Part shown: positions 44,476 to 44,548 of the stretch, piece after piece | How the letters are laid out: each line of letters begins with the position of its first letter | How positions within the stretch are numbered: position 1 is the stretch's first letter | The notes under the pieces: generated by a model | The model's input: only the letters and a program-made list of their open reading frames with translations | Told to the model about the DNA's origin: nothing | Databases searched by the model: none | Program-made: the position numbers and the translations under genes | IMG/VR virus record: IMGVR_UViG_3300045988_070909 | Span: 78,626-142,625 of that record | Strand: one strand, 5' to 3' | Source: a virus | Length of the DNA stretch: 64,000 nucleotides

Positions 44476-44548
44476 CTGCCCTATGGTGTAATGGTCAGCA
44501 CAGATGACTCTAAATCATTTAGTCTGGGTTCGAATCCTAGTAGGGCAA
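44476..44548 (+). tRNA. suppressor tRNA (anticodon CUA, reads UAG), Gln-derived
   Basis: Acceptor TGCCCTA/TAGGGCA (U1-A72), D-arm GTGTAATGGTCAGCAC nearly identical to the tRNA-Gln(UUG) at 30390, anticodon stem GATGA/TCATT with loop CTCTAAA. Confidence 0.8.

Follow-up and report, generated by a model that had tools for sequence, protein, structure and literature searches.

A conserved CUA-anticodon tRNA at the head of the TAG-rich virion genes of a probable crAss-like phage: evidence for a glutamine-type amber suppressor and a possible role in timing

What reads the amber codon in a viral genome whose structural genes are strewn with it, and does the gene for that reader also decide when these structural genes are translated? 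The question is raised by a single transfer RNA (tRNA) gene with a CUA anticodon, located at 44477..44548 (plus strand) of a 64,000-nucleotide window, i.e., the whole stretch of DNA that was analysed, which covers positions 78,626 to 142,625 of the IMG/VR virus record IMGVR_UViG_3300045988_070909. A first-pass annotation had presented this gene as a glutamine-derived amber suppressor acting as the switch for late-gene translation. With regard to the first part, there is good reason for confidence: the gene very probably encodes an amber tRNA built on a tRNA-Gln scaffold of Bacteroidales type, in a crAss-like phage that also writes glutamine as TAG, following genetic code 15, in its rightward virion and packaging genes. 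The second part calls for more reserve.

Twenty-six tRNA genes are called by ARAGORN in the window. Of these, 25 belong to the minus strand, spread from 12.9 to 41.4 kb, and a single one to the plus strand, at 44477-44549, with the anticodon CTA at tRNA position 34. The Rfam tRNA model RF00005 matches the same place (44477-44548) with 66.3 bits (E = 3e-13; gathering score 29). The earlier description of a tRNA with anticodon CUA, the only one on its strand, is therefore borne out; of the boundaries then proposed, 44476-44548, the end stands while the true start is one base further right, at 44477. Read directly, the 72-nt sequence folds into a canonical cloverleaf. The 7-bp acceptor stem (UGCCCUA/UAGGGCA) begins with the pairs U1-A72, G2-C71 and C3-G70, the first of which had already been noted, and a 2-nt connector (UG) leads to a D-arm, GUGU-AAUGGUCA-GCAC, with a 4-bp stem, an 8-nt loop and G18G19. 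The anticodon arm, GAUGA-CUCUAAA-UCAUU, agrees with the earlier reading (GATGA-CTCTAAA-TCATT) and combines a 5-bp stem with a 7-nt loop carrying U33, C34 U35 A36 (44510-44512) and A37. A 4-nt variable loop and a T-arm, CUGGG-UUCGAAU-CCUAG, complete the structure; the discriminator base is A73, at 44548, and CCA is not encoded. The stem sizes, U33, the purine at position 37, G18G19 and a T-loop of the form UUCRANU are those of a canonical elongator tRNA, and 5'-CUA-3' at positions 34-36 is the anticodon of an amber suppressor.

ARAGORN labels the gene 'tRNA-Pyl', which would make pyrrolysine the inserted residue, although this label derives from the anticodon alone. Genuine tRNA-Pyl has a 6-bp anticodon stem, a 3-nt variable loop, a short D-loop, a 1-base connector and neither the G18G19 nor the T-psi-C consensus, and it goes together with pylS and pylBCD. 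In the present gene, the anticodon stem has 5 bp, the variable loop 4 nt, the D-loop 8 nt including GG and the connector 2 nt, and the T-loop is UUCGAAU; none of this resembles tRNA-Pyl, and this identity was rejected on structure. No pyl genes were found among the proteins searched.

For comparison, 53 related IMG/VR loci were fetched around the gene for TerL, the large terminase. In 44 of them, a tRNA(CUA) can be found on the TerL strand, 5.2-9.2 kb upstream of TerL. Among the nine loci where none was called, five have less than 6 kb of upstream flank and two reach the contig start 9.3-9.7 kb upstream; in locus L051 (54% TerL identity) there is none within 10 kb, and in locus L021 the gene is split (see below). 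The intact copies comprise nine sequence variants, ARAGORN's differing end calls being counted, in which all four stems vary and the CUA anticodon is unchanged. In an alignment of eight suppressor variants with the tRNA-Gln(UUG) of the phage, standard pairs occupy 97.4% of the cells and both-sided (compensatory) changes occur in 11 of the 21 pairs; with the partner columns slid as a control, pairing is only 40-50%. Because the locus is conserved upstream of TerL and its stems have undergone compensatory changes, it is a real, conserved tRNA gene, far beyond chance.

The genes downstream indicate what such a tRNA has to read. Under the standard code, open reading frames (ORFs) of at least 100 amino acids (aa) cover a fraction of 0.32 of the right arm, and this rises to 0.86 when TAG is read through. 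Read-through of TGA lifts the coverage only to 0.34, so that a recoding of TGA was rejected, and read-through of TAA gives 0.42. From 43800 onward, the plus arm contains 126 in-frame TAGs in 5407 codons. The recoded block of virion and packaging genes, supported by ORF coverage, TAG counts and PHROG matches to terminase, portal and tail proteins, extends over 49008..62984 on the plus strand, where ORFs of at least 90 aa hold 121 in-frame TAGs. It opens at about 49.0 kb with a 437-aa protein containing 16 TAGs, and includes TerL (51146-53509, plus; 787 aa, 19 TAGs), the portal (53701-55872, plus; 723 aa, 28 TAGs) and tail proteins recognised by PHROGs matches. Annotation of the right arm needs genetic code 15, as otherwise the terminase, portal and tail genes are shattered.

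The meaning of TAG was read from a codon-level alignment of TerL in which no translation table was assumed (the window and 44 relatives, i.e., 45 distinct sequences). TAG is present in 66 alignment columns, with glutamine as the plurality partner in 24 of them; the codon that most often shares these columns is CAA (41 columns; CAG, 24), which is two mutations away from TAG. Conversely, TAG also occurs in 58% of the columns containing glutamine, 22% of those containing glutamate, 6% of those with tyrosine and 0% of those with tryptophan. Between close sequences, defined by at least 80% identical codons, all 126 TAG-to-sense differences lead to glutamine codons (CAG 107, CAA 19). TAG makes up 2.2% of TerL codons versus 2.1% for CAA and CAG together, so that about half of the glutamines are written TAG. 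Since all close-pair differences are to CAG or CAA and the glutamine columns share TAG, TAG is a synonym of these two codons in the structural genes. An insertion of glutamine at UAG, as previously proposed, is thus supported for the rightward virion genes by the alignment and by the read-through coverage, at the level of sequence comparison. Insertion of another residue, be it pyrrolysine, tyrosine, tryptophan, lysine or glutamate, is hardly conceivable: glutamate and lysine are frequent partners of TAG in variable TerL columns, but the uniformity of the recent changes, the predominance of CAA and the fact that tryptophan, tyrosine and cysteine co-occur with TAG barely or never all speak for glutamine.

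For the left arm, the standard code suffices in most cases. Under this code, ORFs of at least 100 aa cover 66% of it, and the 53 genes defined under the standard code end in 31 TAA, 16 TGA and 6 TAG stops, the large genes being without internal TAG. Two genes depart from this rule, a GIY-YIG endonuclease and a radical-SAM-like gene, described below. The window is thus a clear, well-supported case of two genetic codes within one viral genome.

The origin of the suppressor is less straightforward than first thought. Its closest relative in the window is the tRNA-Gln(UUG) of the phage (30389..30461, minus; ARAGORN), with 71% identity, followed by a tRNA-Thr with 69%. Both the suppressor and tRNA-Gln(UUG) have the same D-arm; the first-pass annotation had remarked on this likeness and had derived the suppressor from a duplicated copy of this tRNA by mutation of the anticodon. 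The likeness is real but the derivation does not follow, given that identity is only 71% and that two changes are needed to reach CUA from UUG, while one transition suffices from CUG. A recent duplication of the phage's tRNA-Gln(UUG) is therefore unsupported, the value for tRNA-Thr being so near.

The D-arm ATGGTGTAATGGTNAGCAC was then scanned for in one genome per prokaryotic species, and ARAGORN was rerun on the resulting stretches (at least 120). The matches listed include at least 72 tRNA-His, mostly from Patescibacteria and all but one with G-1, which the suppressor does not have, and at least 38 tRNA-Gln. As a proof of glutamine ancestry, the D-arm alone is weakened by its presence in tRNA-His; among the matches listed, it is diagnostic of tRNA-Gln within Bacteroidota only, where 29 of the 32 matches in genomes so labelled are tRNA-Gln (26 UUG, 3 CUG). 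Among the matches listed, 27 of these 29 begin with U1, and they have a 4-nt variable loop. In addition, tRNA-Gln(CUG) from Prevotellaceae has U1-A72, G2-C71, C3-G70 and A73 in common with the suppressor, the body of which is thus shared with tRNA-Gln of the presumed host phylum. In Escherichia coli, the identity set of glutaminyl-tRNA synthetase (GlnRS) consists of a weak 1-72 pair (U1-A72), G2-C71, G3-C70, G73, G10, U35 and A37. The suppressor has U1-A72, G2-C71, G10, U35 and A37 of this set, which may not fit the host. For two elements of the set, G3-C70 and G73 give way to C3-G70 and A73, which speaks against a glutamine identity, although the latter two are also found in the host-clade tRNA-Gln(CUG) of Prevotellaceae. 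Because the Bacteroidota D-arm matches are mostly tRNA-Gln and the Prevotellaceae tRNA shares the acceptor pairs and A73, the scaffold can be regarded, from its sequence, as Gln-type for the likely host phylum, i.e., as that of a tRNA-Gln of Bacteroidales. An old origin, rather than a recent copy of the phage's own tRNA-Gln(UUG), would best account for the modest identity, the two anticodon changes from UUG and an acceptor and discriminator like those of the Prevotellaceae tRNA-Gln(CUG).

A tRNA-Gln body with a CUA anticodon is, from established knowledge, also what characterises supE of E. coli (glnV/glnX), which is charged by GlnRS and inserts glutamine at UAG. Unlike supE, a chromosomal point mutant of modest efficiency, the present suppressor is a stable, conserved viral gene, and it carries C3-G70 and A73, not G3-C70 and G73.

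With regard to the timing of translation, the exact position of the gene matters. Up to 44 kb the GC skew is negative; its sign flips between the intervals 42-44 kb and 44-46 kb, and further right it is positive. With 43612 as the end of the last minus-strand gene, the ORF map and the skew place the actual strand switch in a 324-bp divergent intergenic region at 43613..43936. Two TAG-bearing genes then precede the tRNA on the plus strand. The first (43937..44338), of unassigned function and without a PHROG match, encodes 133 aa with 4 in-frame TAGs and is conserved, its orthologs having 132-137 aa and 0-3 TAGs at variable polar positions. The second (44331..44471) is a 46-aa ORF with one in-frame TAG that aligns with relatives; it ends with TAA, 5 nt ahead of the tRNA. 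Downstream, the next ORF starts at 44566, after 17 nt, and opens a module of about 4.5 kb (44566..49021, plus) that is compatible with the standard code according to its TAG counts. Besides small ORFs, this module contains two larger genes with PHROG/Pfam matches, a 304-aa PD-(D/E)XK exonuclease (46961-47875, plus) and a 200-aa GroES-like protein (48419-49021, plus). Its larger genes are TAG-free and an 87-aa ORF at 45541-45804 has one TAG. The TAG-rich block begins abruptly 4.5 kb downstream of the tRNA. The earlier placing of the suppressor at the very strand switch, with the TAG-rich genes directly after it, therefore holds only loosely: the tRNA is near the former and upstream of the latter, but two genes separate it from the switch and the TAG-free module separates it from the block. 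The order of upstream gene, tRNA, TAG-free module and TAG-rich block is the same in nine relatives down to 67% TerL identity, and the fixed succession of the last three makes a concrete, testable unit for a timing hypothesis.

A plausible course of events can be proposed. With one ORF ending 5 nt ahead of it and another beginning 17 nt behind it, the tRNA has no room for a promoter of its own and would be processed from a polycistronic transcript, probably a rightward one starting in the divergent region at 43.6-43.9 kb. No informative promoter consensus was found in this region; a scan for sigma-70-type promoters and terminators around the tRNA was uninformative (25 promoter-like sites versus 21.4 expected), and the Bacteroidetes -33/-7 pattern gave 3 matches versus 2.7 expected, none of them upstream of the tRNA. 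As none is encoded, CCA would be added post-transcriptionally. The tRNA could then be charged by the host GlnRS, by analogy with the supE-type tRNA-Gln(CUA) of E. coli, and compete with release factor 1 at UAG, whereby the TAG-rich genes from about 49 kb would be completed. On this basis, it may be that the build-up of the suppressor gates the synthesis of late proteins. Such a temporal role is plausible because the orientation of the tRNA, its location where the rightward block starts and the conserved TAG-free module fit a published idea, and the chances for and against it appear evenly balanced. The idea is that of Borges et al. (10.1101/2021.08.26.457843), who put forward a timing model and a code-change module upstream of recoded genes. 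The likeness to that module lies in the placing of standard-code genes and a suppressor tRNA directly upstream of alternative-code genes, and in the notion that suppressor accumulation gates late or lytic proteins. Unlike the module of Jade phages, where TGA is recoded to tryptophan, TAG is concerned here and the gated genes would be those for packaging and the virion; moreover, only the tRNA was found in the window, with neither release factor 2 nor GlnRS among the proteins searched.

A stronger version has also to be considered, in which the lone tRNA, made at the early-to-late transition, licenses late translation while the early genes are TAG-free. It draws on the fact that this tRNA is the only one co-oriented with the recoded block, which it heads in 44 relatives, on the abrupt passage from the conserved TAG-free module to the TAG-rich block, and on the published model for other recoded phages (10.1101/2021.08.26.457843). 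Several observations weigh against so clean a switch. The two genes that precede the tRNA contain TAG, and so do a few left-arm genes. One of the latter is a GIY-YIG homing-endonuclease-like ORF beside tRNA-Cys (23736-24380, minus; Pfam, 49.3 bits) with 6 in-frame TAGs, and another is a radical-SAM-like gene (37946-38884, minus), recognised by PHROG and a CxxxCxxC motif, with one in-frame TAG; read with the standard code, the latter is matched by PHROG over its C-terminal half only. TAG-bearing ORFs are likewise found in a small minus-strand island that interrupts the TAG-free module of the plus arm (45849-46846; ORF map and PHROG), so that recoding is not strictly bound to one strand. Furthermore, a second suppressor-type tRNA is present on the opposite strand. 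The left arm itself encodes the tRNA array and accessory genes, among them a nicotinate phosphoribosyltransferase, SPFH proteins, an OmpA-like protein and an AAA ATPase, and nothing marks it as 'early'; a search of 20 left-arm proteins turned up neither a release factor nor an aminoacyl-tRNA synthetase. The licensing of late translation by this tRNA alone is thus somewhat doubtful, though it deserves to be kept in mind. Within the minus-strand island, the ORF 45849-46241 matches phrog_15610 ('protease', E = 1e-31).

The second suppressor-type tRNA (41376..41446, minus; 71 nt, ARAGORN; Rfam, 57.3 bits) lies 3 kb to the left of the CUA tRNA and has the anticodon UUA, which could also read UAG by wobble. 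Among the orthologous loci (L001-L049), 19 have CUA, 8 have UUA and one has CUG, these anticodons differing among near-identical phages, and in three loci the anticodon loop is aberrant, with 6 or 8 nt. The cloverleaf is maintained (96.4% paired, with 6 compensatory pairs), and the sequence is not clearly Gln-like. A recoding of TAA that would explain the UUA anticodon left no signal, in-frame single-TAA junctions being no commoner than the TGA control. A precedent can be found in alpha-group crAss-like phages, for which Yutin et al. (2021; PMC7886860) describe the conversion of a tRNA-Gln(UUG) into a tRNA-Sup(UUA) by point mutation; the present tRNA is likewise of ochre type, in a phage with no visible recoding of TAA. 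The alpha-group case differs from the present tRNA in that the latter is not clearly Gln-like and its anticodon varies as described.

It could be argued that the minus-strand tRNA is the real decoder of UAG and the plus-strand gene a spare. The 19 relatives with CUA and the maintained cloverleaf would fit such a view, as would locus L021 (IMGVR_UViG_3300045988_113697, 1885-2956), where the ortholog of the plus-strand gene is split after U35 by a 1000-nt insert. Yet it is the minus-strand tRNA whose anticodon drifts and whose loops are defective in three loci, while CUA is invariant in every intact copy of the plus-strand gene, which also has the higher model score (66 vs 57 bits). The L021 insert looks spliceable as well: U is the last base of the 5' exon and G that of the insert, and the exons, once joined, form an intact tRNA that is called tRNA(CUA). 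A purely redundant plus-strand tRNA is accordingly very improbable. Within the insert lies the gene for a 272-aa HNH endonuclease (Pfam, 24.1 bits; cut-off 21.4). Judged from the junction rules and exon ligation only, the insert looks like a candidate group I intron; the Rfam group I intron model gave no match to it even at E = 1. A tRNA split in this way escapes both ARAGORN and Rfam, which is one possible cause of undetected suppressors in recoded phages.

The second tRNA has a partner of its own. A RAGATH-14 RNA, an orphan Rfam motif, is located at 41473..41679 (minus; 156.6 bits, gathering score 149.1), 26 nt 5' of this tRNA. The same motif can be found 26-31 nt 5' of the second tRNA in five out of five relatives that cover the region (L001 1719-1890, L003 2061-2267, L006 1800-1971, L010 1052-1245 and L024 2196-2391), with Rfam scores up to 184.6 bits. 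This suggests that RAGATH-14 and the second tRNA form a conserved RNA-plus-tRNA transcription unit; a literature search for RAGATH-14 returned nothing on the motif, and the pairing gives this orphan RNA a genomic partner. Taken together, it is possible, though on balance improbable, that the code switch is a two-tRNA system flanking the divergent control region. An invariant late-strand tRNA-Gln(CUA) would be joined by a RAGATH-14-linked tRNA on the opposite strand under RNA-level control, which might be tunable or directed at the host, given that its anticodon switches among CUA, UUA and CUG from one near-identical phage to another. Separately, the CUA tRNA could carry a group-I-like HNH intron of 1 kb in its anticodon loop, which would conceal it from tRNA-finding programs and could explain some recoded phages reported without a suppressor.

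A host-directed action has also been proposed for such suppressors, i.e., that they mainly make the host read through its own UAG stops, defence genes among them, with decoding of phage genes being secondary. It is put forward by Yutin et al. and in a 2025 paper on the Zeta group, according to which some Zeta phages keep a CUA suppressor without having recoded genes (PMC7886860; PMC12386605). In the present phage, however, the 126 in-frame TAGs, lying in essential packaging and virion genes, would make decoding indispensable. Host sabotage as the main function is unlikely here, although the two roles are not mutually exclusive. A glutamine-inserting suppressor that serves the phage's own virion genes is preferred.

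Such a suppressor is of a known kind, since the recoding of TAG to glutamine with a phage suppressor tRNA is already established for crAss-like phages (PMC7886860; 10.1101/2021.08.26.457843; PMC12386605). According to Yutin et al. (2021), suppressor tRNAs and recoding of TAG to glutamine or TGA to tryptophan, mostly in late genes, occur in Beta, Delta and Zeta crAss-like phages (PMC7886860), and genetic code 15 has been verified in crAss-like phages by metaproteomics (Peters et al., 2022; PMC9523058). Only for the two-tRNA arrangement, the partnership with RAGATH-14 and the copy split by an intron was no earlier description found.

As to the affinities of the phage, the identity of its TerL amounts to 25-29% with Crassvirales terminases and to 43-44% with two human-faecal phage records that lack annotation. 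The phage has no DNA-level match in the annotated phage collection (megablast of 44-56 kb), where 43-44% is the best TerL match. Protein and contig searches returned thousands of homologs, related contigs being 165-195 kb long, and one TerL homolog carries intein domains. The Zeta group is characterised by TerL and portal proteins related to those of crAss-like phages, genomes of 145-192 kb, many tRNAs, introns and inteins, and its amber-suppressing members by 176-189 kb, 23-27 tRNAs and a CTA suppressor (PMC12386605). The present lineage resembles the group in genome size (about 180-190 kb), tRNA load (about 26), GC content (about 35%) and the CTA-anticodon tRNA, in the restriction of amber recoding mostly to structural or late genes, and, through its relatives, in the TerL intein and the intron-like, endonuclease-bearing insert. 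Because size, tRNA load, GC content and recoding match the descriptions of the group (PMC7886860; PMC12386605), the phage is probably a crAss-like phage of about 185 kb belonging to the 'Zeta' group, by analogy with the described members. The passages and the table consulted in PMC7886860 and PMC12386605 contain no mention of a paired second tRNA with a toggling anticodon or of a fixed place of the tRNA at the head of the structural block.

Two of the loci retrieved (L133 and L166) correspond to GenBank DXLM01000001.1, a single contig of 186,052 bp labelled 'Bacteroides sp. HRGM_Genome_0403'. It carries a suppressor tRNA identical to that of the window and a phage-type tRNA-Gln(UUG), and is almost certainly a phage genome of the same lineage filed as a bacterium.

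Some further elements of the left arm can be listed. The accessory genes at 4587-6089, 3394-4203, 6993-7820, 31011-32984 and 8258-9274, all on the minus strand, encode the nicotinate phosphoribosyltransferase, a PRTase-like protein, two SPFH/Band-7 proteins and the OmpA-like beta-barrel protein. A tmRNA-like gene at 20146-20700 (minus) matches Rfam RF00023 with 73.4 bits (gathering score 47) and was not called by ARAGORN. Its tRNA-like ends match well, a large insertion sets it apart from the model, and the apparent tag reads GCA GAA AUU GCA CCU GUA AGA AUG GCA GCC UAA (AEIAPVRMAA). Two extra Rfam tRNA matches that ARAGORN missed are located at 22594-22666 (minus; 39.5 bits) and 29400-29476 (minus; 31.7 bits), and several of the tRNAs that it did call are unusually long for their type, e.g., those for Cys (86 nt), Met (80 nt) and Phe (78 nt).

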